A stretch of 64,000 nucleotides of DNA, taken from sequence record PQ850614.1, one strand, 5' to 3'. The notes beneath the pieces were generated by a model. The model had not been told where the DNA came from. It searched no databases and was given only the letters and a program-made list of their open reading frames with translations. Both the position numbers and the translations under genes were made by a program. The stretch is from Escherichia phage LorandFenyves_Bas91. Below are positions 1,735-31,516 of the stretch, piece by piece (positions within the stretch are counted from its first letter, which is position 1; each line of letters begins with the position of its first letter).

Positions 1735-4700
1735 ATGGCGCTGTATCCAATAAAGTCGCTAGGTGCTGTAGGCGTTATCGCTGATCAGGCTCCGACAGAC
1801 TTAGCTCCTAATGCTTTCACTAATGCTATAAATGCTCGATTTGTTGAGCAGAGAGTATTTAAGACGGGGGGCAATGCCCCTCTTTCTTATGTAGACGAAG
1901 ATAAGGATTTAACCCCTCTGTCTTTCGTTTCTATGCCTTTCGATTATTATAGCGCAGGTAATAGCTTTCTTGTTGTAGGTACAGATAAGAAGTTATATAA
2001 ACTGACAGATGAAAGCTTGACTGATATTAGCCGTAAGGTTGCTACAGTCACCAAGAAGGCTTCTGCCTCAATTAAGATTTATCCAGTTGTTTCTCAGATC
2101 GTTCCTAAAGAATCAACTATCTCAATGAACTTCAATCAGACCAAGAATCTAGAGGTTTCTCTTCTCCCTGCCGATGCTAACAATACTGATCTTATTTGGG
2201 AGGTTAGTAATTCATCCTATGGAAGTGTTACGGTAGACCCTAGTGACTCCAAACTTGCTACTCTAACATCTTTTGAGAAAGAGGGTAATCTTGTAGTAAC
2301 TATCTCTACTGCCAATGAATCCGTAGTGGCTCAGATTGCTGTTAATATCATCGATGGTGATTCAGGCATCTTCTTGAGTCAAGATACTGTTACAATTCGT
2401 AAAGGAGGGACTACTACTCTCACGGCTGTTACTGGCAAAACCCCTGTAACTTGGTCCAGCAATAACGCTTCTATTGTATCTGTAACCCCTAACGCCAACT
2501 CTTTAACTGCTGTCATTACAGCGAATGGAGAAGGTAATGTAACAATCACTGCTGATAACGGGACTAAGACTGCTTCTTGTGAGATTGTTTCTATCCCTCA
2601 GATTGATAGTATCTCTTTAAGCCAGTCAGATGTTACTGTGAGTAGAGGTTCTCAGTATATTTTAACTGCCACCCTTTCTCCTGCTAACGCCCCTAATCAA
2701 AACATTACTTGGACCTCTTCTAACCCAAATATTGCAACAGTATCAGGGACTAGCACACAAGGGACAGTAAATGCTTTACTTGCTGGCTTTACTGAGATTA
2801 CAGCTACCACTGAAGAAGGTAATAGAGTTGCTGTCTGTACTGTACGTGTAGATTTAGCTGGAAGGACAATGAGAACAAGTGCTATGGCATTTGCTGCTCC
2901 TGTATCAGAGTCGGTAGAAACTCAAGATGAGGAAGTAGTAACTCCTCCTGAAAGTGAGGAAGTTGTTTATTTTGCTGAGCCTACATCTGGTATAGATACG
3001 TCAGGGATGTATGAAGGTAATAACTTCTATGACTACTCTAACGTGAATGATATTGAAGGTTTTGCAAGAGCTTCTTTACTGGCAACCCCTTTGTCATCTG
3101 TAACCTTAGATATTGTCAGCGCTTCTCTTGATGTTGGTGAAGAGATTGTCATTACAGCCACAGCTTCTCCAGAAGGTGAGTACTCTTATCAGTGGTCTGT
3201 TGATAAAACTGGTTATGTTTCTACAACTTCAGTTACTGGTAAATCTATCAAACTGGTTGCTCTTCGTAAAGGAGATATTAACGTAACATGTACTGTCAGT
3301 CAGATGACTCAGAAAGATTACGATGCTTTTGATGACTATCCTTGGTATCACGCTGTTATCTCTAACTGTGCAGTTGCTACAACTCACTATGAAACTCCTC
3401 AGGTAAAAGAATTCGAATCAGAATACTTTGTAGACCTTCCGGGGTGGGGTGAGCAAACAGTTGTTGATAATGATGGAAACCCTTCAGTCAAGAAGTTTAA
3501 CTGGAAATGTGAGAGAGTGAGATCTTTTAACAACCGTCTTTTTGCCCTGAATATGAGAGAGGCTAATGCTTCTGGTGTTACCACTAACTACCCGCTTCGT
3601 CTTCGTTGGTCTAACTTTGCCAATGAGAACAAGGCTCCTACACTGTGGGATGATTTTGCTTACGATCGTGTTGTGTCTTCGGACTTAGCTTCTAACATCG
3701 TAGGGCAGACTCAGGCTCTAGAGAATGGATATGCTGGTTACATTGATTTAGCTGACTCTAACGGCAGCTTGATTGATATCCTACCTCTTAAAGATTACTT
3801 GTTCGTTTATACAGAGTTTGAAACGTATATAGGTTCTCCGACTAATAACACGTACCAACCTCTAATGTTCAAGAAGCTCTTTAATGACTCTGGTATCCTT
3901 GCTCCTGAGTGTGTGGTTGAAGTAGAAGGTAGTCACTTCGTAGTTACTCAGAACGATGTAATCTTACACAATGGTGCAACCAAGAAGTCAATTGCATCTA
4001 ACCGTGTCAAGAACATGTTGATTAACGAGGTGTGTCTGGTTAACCCTCTAGCAACTCGAGTACACTTGCATCAGGATAAGAAAGAAGTTTGGGTTCTGTA
4101 CGTAGGTCCGGGAGAACCAAAAGAAAGCTTCGCTTGTACTAAAGCTGCTGTATGGAATTATGAGTTTGATACTTGGTCTTTCCGTACTATTCCATATGCT
4201 CAGTGTATCGGTCTTGTTGATCCTCCTGTTTTAGAAAGAGGTCCAATCTGGTCTGACTTCCAAGAAATCACTTGGGATGACCCATCTATTAAAGAACTTG
4301 TTTGGAGAAAGGATGCAACAAACTTCAGACAGAGGGTTACGATAGTAGGTTCGTTCTTGAGGGGATTCTATCAGGTGGATGTAGGTGCTCTTGACTATTT
4401 CTATGACAGGCTAAACGATGTTGTTATAGAGAAGCCTCTGGAAATGAGGTTGGAGAGGACTGGTATAGATTTTGATAATGTGACTAATGAGTGGAATCAG
4501 AAGCATATTAACAGGTTCCGGCCTCAGACAACCGGTTCAGGTATTTACATATTTGAAGCTGGTGGTAGTCAATTCTCAAATGAATATGGACACCCACACA
4601 CATCGAAGACTTATACAATTGGTGTTGACAGGCATGTCTCGGTGAGACTGAACCATCCATACCTTTTCTATAATGTTATAGATAATGATGTTAACAGTAA

Positions 4701-4752
4701 TGCTGCTATCAATGGTTTAACGATAGAGTTTGCTGTTGGCGGGCGGAGATAA
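1735..4752 (+). CDS. tail fibre/adhesin with tandem bacterial Ig-like (Big_2-type) domains
   Basis: AAGGAGG RBS; 1005 aa; several ~80-aa repeats of Big_2 character (e.g. SSNNASIVSVTPNANSLTAVITANGEGNVTITA); distinct C-terminal domain. Confidence 0.75.
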   Translation: MALYPIKSLGAVGVIADQAPTDLAPNAFTNAINARFVEQRVFKTGGNAPLSYVDEDKDLTPLSFVSMPFDYYSAGNSFLVVGTDKKLYKLTDESLTDISRKVATVTKKASASIKIYPVVSQIVPKESTISMNFNQTKNLEVSLLPADANNTDLIWEVSNSSYGSVTVDPSDSKLATLTSFEKEGNLVVTISTANESVVAQIAVNIIDGDSGIFLSQDTVTIRKGGTTTLTAVTGKTPVTWSSNNASIVSVTPNANSLTAVITANGEGNVTITADNGTKTASCEIVSIPQIDSISLSQSDVTVSRGSQYILTATLSPANAPNQNITWTSSNPNIATVSGTSTQGTVNALLAGFTEITATTEEGNRVAVCTVRVDLAGRTMRTSAMAFAAPVSESVETQDEEVVTPPESEEVVYFAEPTSGIDTSGMYEGNNFYDYSNVNDIEGFARASLLATPLSSVTLDIVSASLDVGEEIVITATASPEGEYSYQWSVDKTGYVSTTSVTGKSIKLVALRKGDINVTCTVSQMTQKDYDAFDDYPWYHAVISNCAVATTHYETPQVKEFESEYFVDLPGWGEQTVVDNDGNPSVKKFNWKCERVRSFNNRLFALNMREANASGVTTNYPLRLRWSNFANENKAPTLWDDFAYDRVVSSDLASNIVGQTQALENGYAGYIDLADSNGSLIDILPLKDYLFVYTEFETYIGSPTNNTYQPLMFKKLFNDSGILAPECVVEVEGSHFVVTQNDVILHNGATKKSIASNRVKNMLINEVCLVNPLATRVHLHQDKKEVWVLYVGPGEPKESFACTKAAVWNYEFDTWSFRTIPYAQCIGLVDPPVLERGPIWSDFQEITWDDPSIKELVWRKDATNFRQRVTIVGSFLRGFYQVDVGALDYFYDRLNDVVIEKPLEMRLERTGIDFDNVTNEWNQKHINRFRPQTTGSGIYIFEAGGSQFSNEYGHPHTSKTYTIGVDRHVSVRLNHPYLFYNVIDNDVNSNAAINGLTIEFAVGGRR

Positions 4753-4756
4753 CAAC

Positions 4757-4785
4757 AAGGGGCTTCGTGCCCCTTTTATTGTTTT
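4757..4785 (+). terminator. intrinsic terminator/attenuator hairpin
   Basis: AAGGGGC-TTCGT-GCCCCTT stem-loop followed by TTATTGTTTT, between the tail-fibre gene and the next start. Confidence 0.55.
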
Positions 4786-4795
4786 GGAGGAACTT

Positions 4796-5764
4796 ATGGG
4801 TGCAGGTGGTTTTCGTAAGAATACTGGTCGCAACAACACCACACTCCCGTACAACGTTGGGTTTCTCAATAATGTACAGGACACAGAAACATATAACGTA
4901 GCCGTGTATGATGAATTACAAAAAGTTAGCACAGCTACTAACCAAATGTTCCAAGCTATAGATGAAATTCACGAAGAGATTGATGTTCGTATTAAAGCTC
5001 TTAATGCAATGAATCTACAATTTGATGAGCTTGAGAATAGAATTACTACAGAGATAGAAACAGCTATTGCAGATATCCAAACACAGATGGGGAATCTCTC
5101 CACTGAAGATATTTGGGATAATTCTGTTCAACCTCCTGTAAAATTAGAAAGCACTGTATCTGGCTTTAAAACAAGTATTGAGGGTAACACAACTAAGATT
5201 CAAACGGTAGAAGGTATTGTCAATGACCAAGGTCAAGAGATTGCTTTAGTTCAGACAGAGATTCAAAATATTAATGGAAGCCTATCTCAGTATATGAAGC
5301 TCTCTGAGTATGAAGCTACGTGGGGTGTTAACTCTACAGTAAACGGAAGATATGCTGGGGTCAAGTTAACTAACAACGGAACAAACAGTCAATTCCAAGT
5401 AACAGCTAACAAGTTTATTGTTGGTGATGGCAGCTCTGGTAACACACCTTTTGTGTTTGAGGGTGGTAGGGCTAGAATGGAATTCGCTGACATAAAGAAC
5501 GTCAATATCACAACAGCTCAGATTGCTAACGCTAGAATCCAATGGGCACAGATCGATAACGTATCCATCTCCAATGCTCAGATTCAGAACTTGTCAGCGG
5601 ATAAGATTACTGCTGGCTCTATGTGGGGTTCTAACTGGAGACTTACTGTTGGTGGGGACTTTGTTATGGGTGGCACAGGTGGGGCACAATTGTGGATGAA
5701 TGGTAACAGAATAGACTTCTACGATGGAAGTGGTGCTCTGAGAATCAGGATAGGGAGTTGGTAA
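4796..5764 (+). CDS. tail fibre-like protein (coiled-coil N-terminus, repeat-bearing C-terminus)
   Basis: ATG at 4796 after GGAGG (the ORF track begins at an upstream TTG overlapping the previous gene); IxNAxIQ-type repeats. Confidence 0.6.
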   Translation: MGAGGFRKNTGRNNTTLPYNVGFLNNVQDTETYNVAVYDELQKVSTATNQMFQAIDEIHEEIDVRIKALNAMNLQFDELENRITTEIETAIADIQTQMGNLSTEDIWDNSVQPPVKLESTVSGFKTSIEGNTTKIQTVEGIVNDQGQEIALVQTEIQNINGSLSQYMKLSEYEATWGVNSTVNGRYAGVKLTNNGTNSQFQVTANKFIVGDGSSGNTPFVFEGGRARMEFADIKNVNITTAQIANARIQWAQIDNVSISNAQIQNLSADKITAGSMWGSNWRLTVGGDFVMGGTGGAQLWMNGNRIDFYDGSGALRIRIGSW

Positions 5765-5765
5765 T

Positions 5766-6797
5766 ATGGCATACGGAATATGGACACAACCAGTAGGGCC
5801 GGGGCCAGCAACCCCCGCTCCCTTATTTATTGATAGCGGAAGCACTTTCCCTCAGTTCAAGAATAGTATAAGAGGGAGTTTTAACTTTAATGGGGCTGGG
5901 AGATCTTTCCCTATTAGTGGATGGGATGGCAGTGGTCAGATAGTTATTGTTCCTACCGGTTCTTTATGCTGGCAATGGGAAGTCCCTCCTAACCTAGTTC
6001 CTGATGTTTATTGTGTGAATAATATCTACGTAGAAAACAGTTCCTCTTTTAGAGTTACTCTGAATCAGAACCCCGGCAGTAACCCCTTATTTGACTGTGG
6101 GTTCAACGTATATCAAATATGGCCTAGAGCGGATAGGAATTACGGAATTACCTTTTCTAACACAGCAGACTACTTCTCGATATCTGATAGTGGGGTCGTC
6201 GGTCAATGTATTTGGGCTTGGCAGGGGACCATAAACAATGCCCTTCAGATACCAAATATCGGTGGGTTCAATATGACCAATGCTGTTGTGTTTGCTAATT
6301 GGTCTGATGGAGGGATAGGACTATCTTATACCTCTGATGACAGGGTTATTCGTGTTTATCAGAACAGACCTTACATAAACGGCAACACTAACGAGGGTGG
6401 TTCTGTGTTTGCTAGAGTTGCAGTATTCTGCAATGGAGCAGGAGTTCCGGAACATAATGGAGGTTTGAATATTTATTCTCCGGGTACCACGCAATGTGTC
6501 TTCTCTACTAACAGAACACCTTTCACTGTGGATACTTTTATAGGCTCAGGAGGCGGTAACACTGGAATGGCATACCCTATGATACCTCTTACCTCTGGAA
6601 TAGGTGCGATAAAAGGCCAAGGCAGTGGATGGAGATATCAGCAAATGAGATCTCACACCATGAGTGGTTCTACGATAGGAACGGGCTATGGAAGGTATTT
6701 ATTTCAGTGGGATCAGAATTACGACCTAGGAGCTGATACTGTAGTTAATTTATCAGTTCCTGTAATAAATGCAGCTAAGGTTTTTGCTGGACTATAA
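5766..6797 (+). CDS. structural protein (tail fibre/tip-like), G/S/N-rich
   Basis: Tightly coupled to the preceding gene; beta-rich composition. Confidence 0.5.
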   Translation: MAYGIWTQPVGPGPATPAPLFIDSGSTFPQFKNSIRGSFNFNGAGRSFPISGWDGSGQIVIVPTGSLCWQWEVPPNLVPDVYCVNNIYVENSSSFRVTLNQNPGSNPLFDCGFNVYQIWPRADRNYGITFSNTADYFSISDSGVVGQCIWAWQGTINNALQIPNIGGFNMTNAVVFANWSDGGIGLSYTSDDRVIRVYQNRPYINGNTNEGGSVFARVAVFCNGAGVPEHNGGLNIYSPGTTQCVFSTNRTPFTVDTFIGSGGGNTGMAYPMIPLTSGIGAIKGQGSGWRYQQMRSHTMSGSTIGTGYGRYLFQWDQNYDLGADTVVNLSVPVINAAKVFAGL

Positions 6798-28462: not shown

Positions 28463-28644
28463 TTACGCTCTCCAATTTCTTCGTAATGACACTCAGTAGT
28501 TAAGCAGTCTTTACAGATTGCTGTATAAACCCTGACGTTAGTAAATCGTTTATTCTTCCCTTTGGTTGGAGAGCCTTTGGCAAGCTCTCTGATAACCTTG
28601 TTACTTAAATGAAGGTTTGTTCCTTCACATCTAGAGCACTTCAT
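28459..28644 (-). CDS. small zinc-ribbon protein
   Basis: CxxC...CxxC spacing in 61 aa. Confidence 0.4.
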   Translation of the reverse strand: MKCSRCEGTNLHLSNKVIRELAKGSPTKGKNKRFTNVRVYTAICKDCLTTECHYEEIGERK

Positions 28645-28960
28645 GGTTCATATCTTTATGAATCCTGTAAACAGCTGTCGCCATACAAGCAACAGCCTCA
28701 TTATGTGGGAGGTGCATTCCTGTAGAACCATCCCAATCTTTGAACTCAGCGTCAAAGACTCCGGTAGGCTCTGGATACAGAGCTTGCAGCTCCACTAGAT
28801 CATTAGCAACTTGTTGCCATTTATCATCAGACCAGATAGGGTCATCCAACCAGTAATACAAATAGGAATGGATGATCAATTGCCTTCTATACCGATTGAT
28901 TACTTCAGCTGGACTTATCTCACTTCCATTTGAAGTCCTAAATGTATTACCGTCGATCAT
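28631..28960 (-). CDS. hypothetical protein
   Basis: 109-aa ORF. Confidence 0.4.
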   Translation of the reverse strand: MIDGNTFRTSNGSEISPAEVINRYRRQLIIHSYLYYWLDDPIWSDDKWQQVANDLVELQALYPEPTGVFDAEFKDWDGSTGMHLPHNEAVACMATAVYRIHKDMNHEVL

Positions 28961-29708: not shown

Positions 29709-30365
29709 TTAACTCTCCAAAGTTTTCTTCAGGGCTGCCCATGAGATTGGGTAAAGTTTAGCCATCTCTTCATCCAGAGATTGAGCAAACACTCGAACTT
29801 CGTATTGAGCGTGAGAGGAGAGTCGCTGACGACACAACTCAAACCAGCCATATAAAGAACCAGTCCACACCCACTCAGTGATCATTCCCTGAGGAAGAAC
29901 AAATCGGGCTTGCTCTGGTGCAACGAATTCGATTAACTTGTCATATGCTGCTAGAGAAGCTTCATATGCATCGTTAATCAACATTAATGCTTCAGCTCGT
30001 TCTCCATCGATGAGTTGAACCCCTGAACCTGCATGGAGGTCCGAAGGTCTCGCAAAAATCTCTTTAGGGATGAAGACTTCAACTGCTCCATCTTTATACC
30101 GCCGGGACATTTCGTTCCACGAGAATCCAACCTGATGCTTGCCCAACTGTCTCGCAATTGCGATAGGTGCTTTGCATCGGAAACTGACTTGCGGGTGTCG
30201 GAATGGGGTAACATGCTTCTCTCTTGCGAGGAAGTTGATGAGACGTTCATCACGTTCATTTAAATCACCTTCACGGGTTACGCCAAAGGAAACTCGAGCT
30301 GCGTTTACTACGCTACGATCACTTCCCATAGCTTCGATTAATGTTGCTTGTAGTTGTTCATTCAT
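29709..30365 (-). CDS. thyX: flavin-dependent thymidylate synthase (ThyX-like)
   Basis: HVTPFRHPQVSFRCKAPIAIARQ...KHQ...SWNEMSRRY resembles the ThyX RHR...SxxxSxRY signature region. Confidence 0.65.
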   Translation of the reverse strand: MNEQLQATLIEAMGSDRSVVNAARVSFGVTREGDLNERDERLINFLAREKHVTPFRHPQVSFRCKAPIAIARQLGKHQVGFSWNEMSRRYKDGAVEVFIPKEIFARPSDLHAGSGVQLIDGERAEALMLINDAYEASLAAYDKLIEFVAPEQARFVLPQGMITEWVWTGSLYGWFELCRQRLSSHAQYEVRVFAQSLDEEMAKLYPISWAALKKTLES

Positions 30366-30380
30366 CCGTGAATATCCTTA

Positions 30381-30656
30381 TTACTTATTGCTCAGGGCTG
30401 TGTCCAAAAATGCTTTCAGGTTTGCTTCGGTCTGCATACCAGAGAGGCTGTAGTGTGCACCACTGTTACGGTCAGGCACAACAAAAGCAGGGATGCTTCG
30501 TACACCATACTTAACAGCTTGCTCACGACCATCACCTTCAAGGATGTTAATCTCTTCCACTTCTACATCAAACTCCTTAACAACCTTCTCAAAGGTAGGA
30601 GCCATTGCTTTACATGGAGCACACTGATCACTATAAAACTTAATTACTTTAGACAT
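30381..30656 (-). CDS. thioredoxin
   Basis: CAPC active site; KYGVRSIP and LKAFLD parallel E. coli TrxA blocks. Confidence 0.8.
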   Translation of the reverse strand: MSKVIKFYSDQCAPCKAMAPTFEKVVKEFDVEVEEINILEGDGREQAVKYGVRSIPAFVVPDRNSGAHYSLSGMQTEANLKAFLDTALSNK

Positions 30657-30664
30657 GTAAATCC

Positions 30665-30844
30665 TTATGCGGTCAGGAGGTGAAGCAGGAACGGGATAAC
30701 AACAGCTACGATAACCATGATAGTTGATGCTGTTTGAATCTCACCTTTCTTATCAGGAGTTTCTTCAATAAGCTTACCAGAAGCCCAATAAATACCACCA
30801 CCAATAAAGATAGCCCAAATACCCCATACGATTGCTGATAACAT
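30665..30844 (-). CDS. small two-TMD membrane protein (59 aa)
   Basis: AAGGA RBS; two hydrophobic helices; preferred over the overlapping alternative-frame ORF 30706-30978. Confidence 0.35.
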   Translation of the reverse strand: MLSAIVWGIWAIFIGGGIYWASGKLIEETPDKKGEIQTASTIMVIVAVVIPFLLHLLTA

Positions 30845-30904
30845 ATATCTATATCCTTATAAATAAGTTCGCCCCACCTCGGGTTAGGAGACAGGGCGGA
30901 GGTT

Positions 30905-31516
30905 TTAGTAAGACACATCACCACTTGAATGGGACATGTTGCTCTTGACGAAGTAGCAATACTTGCCAAGACCTTCATTAATTTCTTGAAGCATACTCTG
31001 ATCGACAGGGTAAGTGGCTAAATCGCCATCAAACTCATCCATCTTCTCAATAATACACATCAAGGTCATGCACATATCAGAGAGCATACCGTCCATGTCT
31101 AGATCAGCATTACCCTCTGAGAACCAAGCATGAGAGAGGTAGTTAGCTGCTGTAGCATCCACTTTAACACAGTGATAACGCATACGTTCAGCAATACGAT
31201 CTCCTACTTGTCGTGCGTAATTTTCCAACTCATCAAACATACCATGAACACCCTGAAATCCTGCACCAGAGACATTCCAGTGGTAGTTTTTAGCTTTGAT
31301 ATGCAAGAGTTCCATATTAGCTTGTAAGCAGCTCAGGATGTGTTCTAGGCTGTTTCCGCTAATCATACCCTGCATCGTTTCAAGGCGAGAGATTGAAAGC
31401 TCTGACCGATCTAACATATTATAGTCGGCACGACCAATATCAGGTAAATCAAAGACATTCTTATGCATTTGGGTTTTCTCCATCAAGTTCAACTGAGTTA
31501 GCAACGTTACGTGCAA
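30905..31516 (-). CDS. Dps-like (ferritin-superfamily) protein
   Basis: KNYHWNVSGAGFQGVHGMFDE...DRIAERM and C-terminal YFVKSNM parallel Dps conserved blocks; exact start uncertain. Confidence 0.55.
   Translation of the reverse strand: MHVTLLTQLNLMEKTQMHKNVFDLPDIGRADYNMLDRSELSISRLETMQGMISGNSLEHILSCLQANMELLHIKAKNYHWNVSGAGFQGVHGMFDELENYARQVGDRIAERMRYHCVKVDATAANYLSHAWFSEGNADLDMDGMLSDMCMTLMCIIEKMDEFDGDLATYPVDQSMLQEINEGLGKYCYFVKSNMSHSSGDVSY

Follow-up and report, generated by a model that had tools for sequence, protein, structure and literature searches.

Does an Escherichia phage encode a mini-ferritin of the Dps family and, if so, what would such a protein do in the course of infection? The question is raised by a minus-strand open reading frame at 30905..31516 of the 64,000-nucleotide stretch of Escherichia phage LorandFenyves_Bas91 that we analysed as a whole (PQ850614.1; hereafter the window). 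An initial annotation, made from the sequence alone, had read it as a Dps-like ferritin-fold protein and had offered three possible roles, namely protection of replicating DNA from oxidative damage, sequestration of iron and compaction of DNA. The open reading frame is present; read from its TTG start it specifies 203 aa, and it holds both strings that had been likened to Dps, HWNVSGAGFQGVHGMFDE...DRIAERM and YFVKSNM.

The source phage is a Kuravirus of the phiEco32/SU10 type. Over 8 kb of sequence surrounding the gene, dozens of Escherichia Kuraviruses match at 95-99% identity, with CHD5UKE1 the best at 98.9%; the protein itself has the same sequence as SU10 gp67 (100% identity) and shares 96.8% of its residues with phiEco32 gp67. 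The Dps identity of the gene is already known and no discovery of ours: the GenBank record of phiEco32 (EU330206) has labelled gp67 'DNA-binding protein; member of the Dps family' from 2008 onwards, and the SU10 and Privateer papers also discuss it, the former describing CDS67 as a Dps-domain protein and as one of a few genes common to all five C3 phages then sequenced (PMC4281155). In phiEco32, SU10 and their relatives its kinship with Dps has been on record for more than 15 years, and for the most part our analysis leaves that picture unchanged. Our additions are modest: a check of the ferroxidase ligands, doubt about the DNA-binding label, an altered pore, a gp68-Dps(-NrdD) cassette and an 'integrase' mislabel.

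The mislabel concerns sister genomes. Many Kuravirus GenBank/RefSeq records (e.g. NC_070983.1, NC_070989.1 and KP308307.1) call this Dps gene 'integrase', and others call it 'hypothetical protein'. The identity of a tyrosine or serine integrase was rejected, as Ferritin is the sole Pfam match even at E ≤ 10 and neither the PDB nor the PHROGs returned an integrase match. The 'integrase' label is an annotation error, and it could wrongly suggest lysogeny or a temperate lifestyle in phages considered for therapy.

The extent of the gene had to be corrected. The reading frame proposed at first holds, but its start does not, as translation almost certainly begins 48 nt further inside, at ATG 31468, giving a Dps-family coding sequence at 30905..31468 (minus strand) whose product has 187 aa, a mass of 21.2 kDa and a pI of 4.77. 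A GGAG stands 8 nt upstream of this ATG, which is also the start in the phiEco32 and SU10 GenBank records. From this start, the first 8 nt of the coding sequence are shared with the end of the upstream gene (31461..31790), stop codon included. Longer reading frames from TTG 31516 or ATG 31483 were dropped, the ribosome-binding site, the GenBank starts and the 21.2 kDa mass all favouring ATG 31468. Downstream starts, which would remove the N-terminal extension, were dropped as well: homologues with as little as about 52% identity still conserve residues 1-9 (MHNNxFDLP) as protein sequence, so that the N-terminus of the phage Dps is translated, and no more than 8 nt of the gene lie within the upstream one. 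Selection on the gene is visible in a comparison with the 82%-identical SU7 homologue, where, with dS saturated, dN/dS is 0.05 over the whole gene, 0.024 over the core and 0.20 over the N-terminal 44 codons. The phage Dps gene is under strong purifying selection.

Profile, sequence and fold searches agree on the family, and the gene product is very probably a member of the Dps mini-ferritins. The resemblance to Dps goes far beyond chance: Pfam PF00210 (Ferritin) clears its gathering cut-off of 24.5 bits with a score of 30.4, PHROG 3636 matches at E 3.8e-55, and among the 60 PDB sequence matches listed all but one are Dps-type or ferritin-like, the best being Bacillus anthracis Dlp-2 (1jig; E 2.6e-9). 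In the reverse direction, a profile built on the phage clade retrieves thousands of Dps-annotated proteins. One hit of 1156 aa, P0124, with 20 matched stretches, was discarded as a tandem-repeat artefact. The AF2 model of the monomer, computed from a 111-sequence alignment, has a pLDDT of 86.8 overall and above 90 over the core; its helices (41-65, 71-98, 125-146 and 154-176, with a short BC helix at 107-112) form a four-helix bundle that has no fifth (E) helix. The 1jig structure superposes on this model with an rmsd of 1.2 Å over 138 columns, and the best 50 Foldseek matches in the PDB are all Dps-type dodecamers, two of them the Dps-like PA4880.

Membership of the family is to be distinguished from orthology with its best-known member. 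The NCBIfam Dps equivalog NF006975 scores 34.8 bits, far below its cut-off of 114, and with equivalog scores so far under the cut-offs the phage protein is not an orthologue or equivalog of the characterised E. coli Dps. Two other ferritin types were considered and dropped. For a 24-mer ferritin or bacterioferritin, the best 50 fold matches are of the 12-mer Dps type and the fifth helix is missing; for a bacterioferritin-type intrasubunit site, which calls for Glu and Glu-x-x-His motifs on helices A-D, the sequence offers a single E-x-x-H (E53..H56), and the clade does not keep it, the position being H, Y or R.

The active site of a Dps is shared between subunits, and its residues could be placed by homologue alignment at codons 63-94 (31187..31282, minus strand). 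In an alignment with the E. coli Dps sequence, K60, H63, W64, H75, D79, D90 and E94 correspond to K48, H51, W52, H63, D67, D78 and E82 at a constant offset of +12. None of the 111 aligned homologues departs from H63, W64, H75, D90 or E94, and 106 of them have D or E at position 79; the same five are invariant in a 16-member clade that reaches down to 48% identity. All five ligands (H63, H75, D79, D90 and E94) are thus in place at exactly the spacing of E. coli Dps, and the predicted intersubunit di-iron ferroxidase set is complete. The initial annotation had named the ferroxidase residues and a profile search as the points on which its Dps reading could fail; since the ligands are conserved and the profile searches return Dps mini-ferritins and not some unrelated helical bundle, that reading stands.

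That a Dps is unusual phage cargo, as was first supposed, is borne out by a survey in which homologues were found in 138 of 50,697 phage records, about 100 of the 138 being Kuravirus-like. BFVD gave 17 matches at E ≤ 1e-3. The phage proteins form a small and discrete clade, a search of 1.84 billion proteins having given 7 representative clusters at E ≤ 1e-30, and the match to E. coli Dps is among the weakest of the PDB matches listed (E 0.16); on these two grounds a recent capture from the host is ruled out. Within the prolate C3 podophages the gene is core. The searchable literature yielded mentions in genome papers and no biochemistry or genetics of a phage Dps, and the Privateer paper states that the function of its Dps homologue was not verified (PMC7881722).

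The conservation of the catalytic residues does not extend to the predicted pore. A negatively charged pore of the ferritin-like three-fold kind, through which Fe2+ enters, is usual in the family without being strictly diagnostic of it. The ferritin-like three-fold pore region maps to codons 146-157 (30997..31032, minus strand), which comprise the helix C-D loop and the start of helix D and were aligned with pore mutants of Mycobacterium smegmatis Dps2. At the position of Y153, all of the 71 cellular Dps homologues compared have Asp, whereas the long-form clade has Tyr, Cys or His; P154 is invariant in the clade, and D156 takes the place of the canonical Thr. Just outside these codons, S158 aligns with the M. 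smegmatis Dps2 gate residue D138 and is Ser or Asn in the clade. Acidic residues are still found near the pore region (D147, D149, D156, E162 and E165), and helix C carries a conserved Met/Cys-rich run, D-M-C-M-T-L-M-C. Judged from the alignments, the catalytic site is intact while the ferritin-like pore appears to have been remodelled. Because the canonical pore Asp residues are replaced, the route or the kinetics of iron entry may differ from those of other Dps proteins.

The N-terminus departs from the family in another respect. Codons 1-44 (31337..31468, minus strand) include about 30 residues of clade-specific extension, delimited by the alignment and the AF2 model and lying outside the PHROG profile, with conserved FDLP and S-x-x-R-L-(D/E)-x-M motifs and a helix predicted with low confidence by AF2 at residues 18-37. 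This region is acidic: residues 1-44 contain 4 K/R and 7 D/E. At the C-terminus, K/R are absent from residues 176-187. A flexible Lys/Arg-rich tail, the element that mediates DNA binding in Dps of the E. coli type, is thus wanting at both ends, and the net charge is -14 per subunit.

These features bear on whether the protein acts mainly by binding and compacting DNA, coating or condensing phage or host DNA in the manner of E. coli Dps. The family name and the GenBank 'DNA-binding protein' annotation would speak for it, as would the short-form relatives of 7-11, Privateer, GAP52 and BUCT695, whose basic N-termini (MLGARPKR, MKQILTARPGSKRKAG) resemble the DNA-binding tails of Dps proteins. The GenBank label, however, is based on homology alone, and the Kuravirus protein has a pI of 4.77, a strongly negative net charge, an acidic N-terminus and a C-terminal tail free of K/R. 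Several solved Dps proteins that have no basic tail fail to bind DNA. Since the extension is acidic and not basic, the 'DNA-binding' label is doubtful for the long-form protein, and direct binding through a basic tail appears unlikely from its composition. We accordingly regard a mainly DNA-compacting protein as unlikely, and of the three roles offered in the initial annotation DNA compaction is the least supported.

The genes around gp67 offer a further line of evidence. On the minus strand the order is three tandem small paralogues, a promoter, gp68, Dps, a hairpin, gp66, thioredoxin and ThyX. The gp68-like protein (31461..31790; 109 aa, phrog_10984 by PHROG match) is a predicted SH3/Tudor-like β-barrel, although its AF2 model has a pLDDT of 67.5 and the Foldseek matches are to generic barrels of this kind, none at E ≤ 1e-3; Pfam, NCBIfam and PADLOC gave no match. 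It forms with Dps a conserved overlapping pair that is translationally coupled, Dps being the second gene. The gp68-like gene is co-conserved with Dps across the C3 podophages (Gordonclarkvirinae, Grimontviridae and Lahexavirus). In Privateer, GAP52, BUCT695 and LAh_6 it immediately precedes Dps, its end overlapping or adjoining the Dps start; in Salmonella 7-11 the gp68-like gene adjoins thioredoxin.

A predicted dual promoter of the pair lies at 31828..31873 (minus strand), identified by motif match and by an SU7 promoter annotated at the same place. It comprises a sigma-70-like TTTACT-16-TATGAT and, 7 nt further, AAATGTATATA, which is the motif of the phiEco32 gp36 sigma factor with one mismatch. 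The promoter at this site is the first middle promoter according to the SU10 paper (PMC4281155), and the gp68-Dps pair is predicted to be the first middle transcription unit, at the head of a middle operon devoted to replication and nucleotide metabolism. At the other end of the pair, 7 nt past the Dps stop, folding gives a terminator-like, G+C-rich hairpin of 11 pairs (30870..30898, minus strand). The 60-nt gap between Dps and gp66 accommodates a second, A+U-rich hairpin (within 30845..30898, minus strand) that overlaps the ribosome-binding region of gp66. A 66-nt stretch holding both hairpins folds at -18.5 kcal/mol (z -2.3), and the sequence of the hairpin region is 100% identical in phiEco32 and SU10.

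Downstream of the hairpins is gp66 (30665..30844, minus strand), a small hydrophobic protein of 59 aa (phrog_9296) that lies between Dps and the thioredoxin. The latter (30381..30656, minus strand; Pfam PF00085, E 2.1e-13) belongs to the same conserved module and is followed by the flavin-dependent thymidylate synthase ThyX (29709..30365, minus strand; Pfam PF02511, E 1.4e-43). The neighbourhood of thioredoxin and ThyX had been remarked on from the outset, and both genes are indeed just downstream of Dps on the same strand.

Three other features of the region may be recorded in their own right. Directly upstream of the gp68-Dps promoter, three paralogous open reading frames of 65-69 aa (phrog_4939) are arranged head to tail on the minus strand at 31863..32072, 32072..32281 and 32281..32478; phiEco32 has three such genes, and in SU10 a fourth small open reading frame is annotated. 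At 28631..28960 (minus strand) a protein of 109 aa is limited to domain Ia, the N-terminal, NAD+-binding part of NAD-dependent DNA ligase (Pfam Nlig-Ia, E 2.6e-34), without adenylation or OB domains. At 33022..34386 (minus strand; alternative start GTG 34440) is a nucleotidyltransferase of 454 aa (phrog_12715), with a weak match, below the Pfam cut-off, to the head domain of poly(A) polymerase and CCA-adding enzymes (E 0.0024).

The strict conservation of the overlapping gp68 partner allows for a reading in which the Dps fold has been repurposed, together with gp68, as a shell with a task unrelated to iron, such as the sequestration of another metal or the binding of a host factor. The substitutions in the pore, the clade-specific extension and the conserved Met/Cys-rich helix C would all suit such a shell. 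The invariance of every ferroxidase ligand across the clade is nevertheless hard to explain without iron chemistry, and no defence or anti-defence model was matched, so that we consider repurposing very improbable. A role in defence or anti-defence as such was dropped, PADLOC having given no match.

In relatives of the Kuraviruses the pair has yet another neighbour, the anaerobic ribonucleotide reductase NrdD. The gene order is Trx-gp68-Dps-NrdD in GAP52 and gp68-Dps-NrdD in BUCT695, and in LAh_6 Dps is close to nrdD and nrdG. Privateer has Trx-gp68-Dps followed by a remnant of the NrdD ATP-cone, and in 7-11, too, such a remnant comes after Dps. The remnants are free-standing, of about 98 aa (5398..5694 of locus L003, from Privateer, and 5411..5710 of locus L004, from 7-11), and they match the first ~90 residues of NrdD, apparently the ATP-cone, with 45-52% identity to full-length phage NrdD; whole NrdD genes occupy the matching place in other relatives (3957..6089 of locus L007 and 3959..6052 of locus L005).

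Such an arrangement invites the view that the phage Dps is chiefly a store or donor of iron for iron-dependent enzymes, above all the ancestrally adjacent reductase, rather than an antioxidant. Its position directly upstream of nrdD in GAP52 and BUCT695, its closeness to nrdD and nrdG in LAh_6 and the ATP-cone remnants of Privateer and 7-11 all fit. The Kuraviruses, however, have lost NrdD entirely, having neither the full gene nor a remnant, and yet keep their Dps under strong constraint; in the window itself tblastn found no NrdD, GrcA or ATP-cone, so a function linked to NrdD cannot account for the retention of Dps in this phage. A scan of neighbouring genes identified no iron-dependent enzyme, ThyX being a flavoenzyme. 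We therefore think it quite improbable that supplying iron is the chief role.

The role that we favour, and that we hold to be probable though by a measured degree, is the detoxification of Fe2+ and H2O2 by the mini-ferritin during phage replication. Like every solved Dps, gp67 would assemble into a dodecameric shell, as its fold indicates and as do ligands able to form a site only across a dimer interface. Fe2+ would be oxidised, preferentially with H2O2, at H63, H75 and D79 of one subunit together with D90 and E94 of its two-fold partner, and the resulting Fe3+ would be stored inside the shell. Fenton chemistry would in this way be suppressed while phage DNA is replicated and while redox-sensitive enzymes of nucleotide metabolism are at work, namely ThyX and thioredoxin here and the anaerobic ribonucleotide reductase in relatives. 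A Dps of the phage's own makes sense because phages of the phiEco32 type take over host transcription, so that the stress-induced dps gene of the host would be unreliable. Lytic infection in another phage-host system induces host dps, catalase and peroxiredoxin (PMC7354516). SU10 gp67 is made in infection, having been detected by mass spectrometry in a PEG-concentrated sample with 35.8% coverage and 6 peptides (PMC4281155).

Another reading is that the protein travels with the particle. In that case it would be virion-associated cargo, inside the prolate head or bound to the particle, delivered with the genome or stabilising it, and targeted there by the N-terminal extension or by gp68. The Privateer homologue was detected in virions purified through CsCl step and equilibrium gradients (PMC7881722), and the gene is core to the prolate C3 podophages; to this may be added Dps-fold domains in BFVD that are fused to proteins annotated 'prohead protease' from uncultured Caudovirales. 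The SU10 sample, on the other hand, was merely concentrated with PEG and also contained polymerase, sigma factor and PhoH (PMC4281155), while the analysis of purified SU10 virions and ejection in the cryo-EM paper lists gp20-24, gp67 being absent from its text and supplements. The gene, moreover, lies in the middle replication module and not in the late structural module, and an iron-loaded 12-mer could conceivably co-band with phage in CsCl. Taking both sides together, we are strongly inclined to doubt that gp67 is virion cargo.

The fusions deserve mention in themselves. In the BFVD entries A0A6J7XDU5, A0A6J7WPK9 and A0A6J7WIS1, Dps-fold domains lie inside much longer proteins annotated 'prohead protease', a hint that in some phages a Dps domain may be directed to the inside of the capsid. 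A bolder extension, to which the Privateer virion proteomics and these fusions both point, would have the Dps and the invariably coupled, SH3-like gp68 of prolate C3 podophages form a phage-specific nanocage associated with the capsid or the packaged genome, to which the extension and pores of the Kuravirus protein would be adapted, in place of bulk detoxification of cytoplasmic iron. We offer this as a speculation that is itself quite unlikely to be correct, and the detoxification of iron and peroxide during replication is the reading that we carry forward. An intact and constrained catalytic site, a missing DNA-binding determinant, an altered pore and the company of gp68 and, ancestrally, of NrdD together make gp67 a compact and testable case of phage-encoded control of iron and peroxide chemistry during replication.

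Comparison with known systems places the protein more exactly. The gp67 proteins of phiEco32 (ABY52868.1) and SU10 (AIF71819.1) are encoded by the same gene, at the same position, with the same start codon, neighbours and downstream hairpin, and there is no material difference between them and the gene studied here. A second circle is formed by the short-form proteins of Grimontviridae and Lahexavirus (Salmonella 7-11, Proteus Privateer, Cronobacter GAP52, Aeromonas BUCT695 and LAh_6), which belong to the same clade at 32-44% identity. They have the same gp68-like partner upstream and the same module of thioredoxin and nucleotide metabolism, but they are only 144-156 aa long, have short basic N-termini, keep Asp or Asn at the canonical pore position and are followed by NrdD or its ATP-cone remnant; the Privateer protein was found in purified virions.

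Among solved structures, the closest Dps dodecamers are B. anthracis Dlp-2 (1JIG), Bacillus subtilis MrgA (2CHP) and M. smegmatis Dps2 (2Z90). They share with the phage protein the four-helix bundle and the BC helix (rmsd 1.2-2.3 Å over about 140 residues, at 22-26% identity), and their ferroxidase ligands and adjacent Trp are identical to those of the phage. The phage protein differs from these dodecamers in its N-terminus, which is longer by about 30 residues, and in a C-terminal tail of 10 residues, and its pore differs from that of M. smegmatis Dps2 in having S158 for D138, Q161 for H141 and Y153 for the invariant Asp. E. coli Dps (1DPS) has the same fold, with ferroxidase ligands at identical spacing, but its sequence match is very weak, extending over 40 residues at the E value given above and ranking among the weakest PDB matches listed, and its Lys-rich, DNA-binding N-terminal tail contrasts with the acidic N-terminus of the phage protein. 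Pseudomonas aeruginosa PA4880 (8W1E), which is among the fold matches, has the Dps subunit fold and forms a dodecamer. Its identity to the phage Dps is 14%, and its published description gives it bacterioferritin-type intrasubunit di-iron centres, unlike those of Dps (PMC11150526). The phage Dps has kept the canonical intersubunit ligand set.
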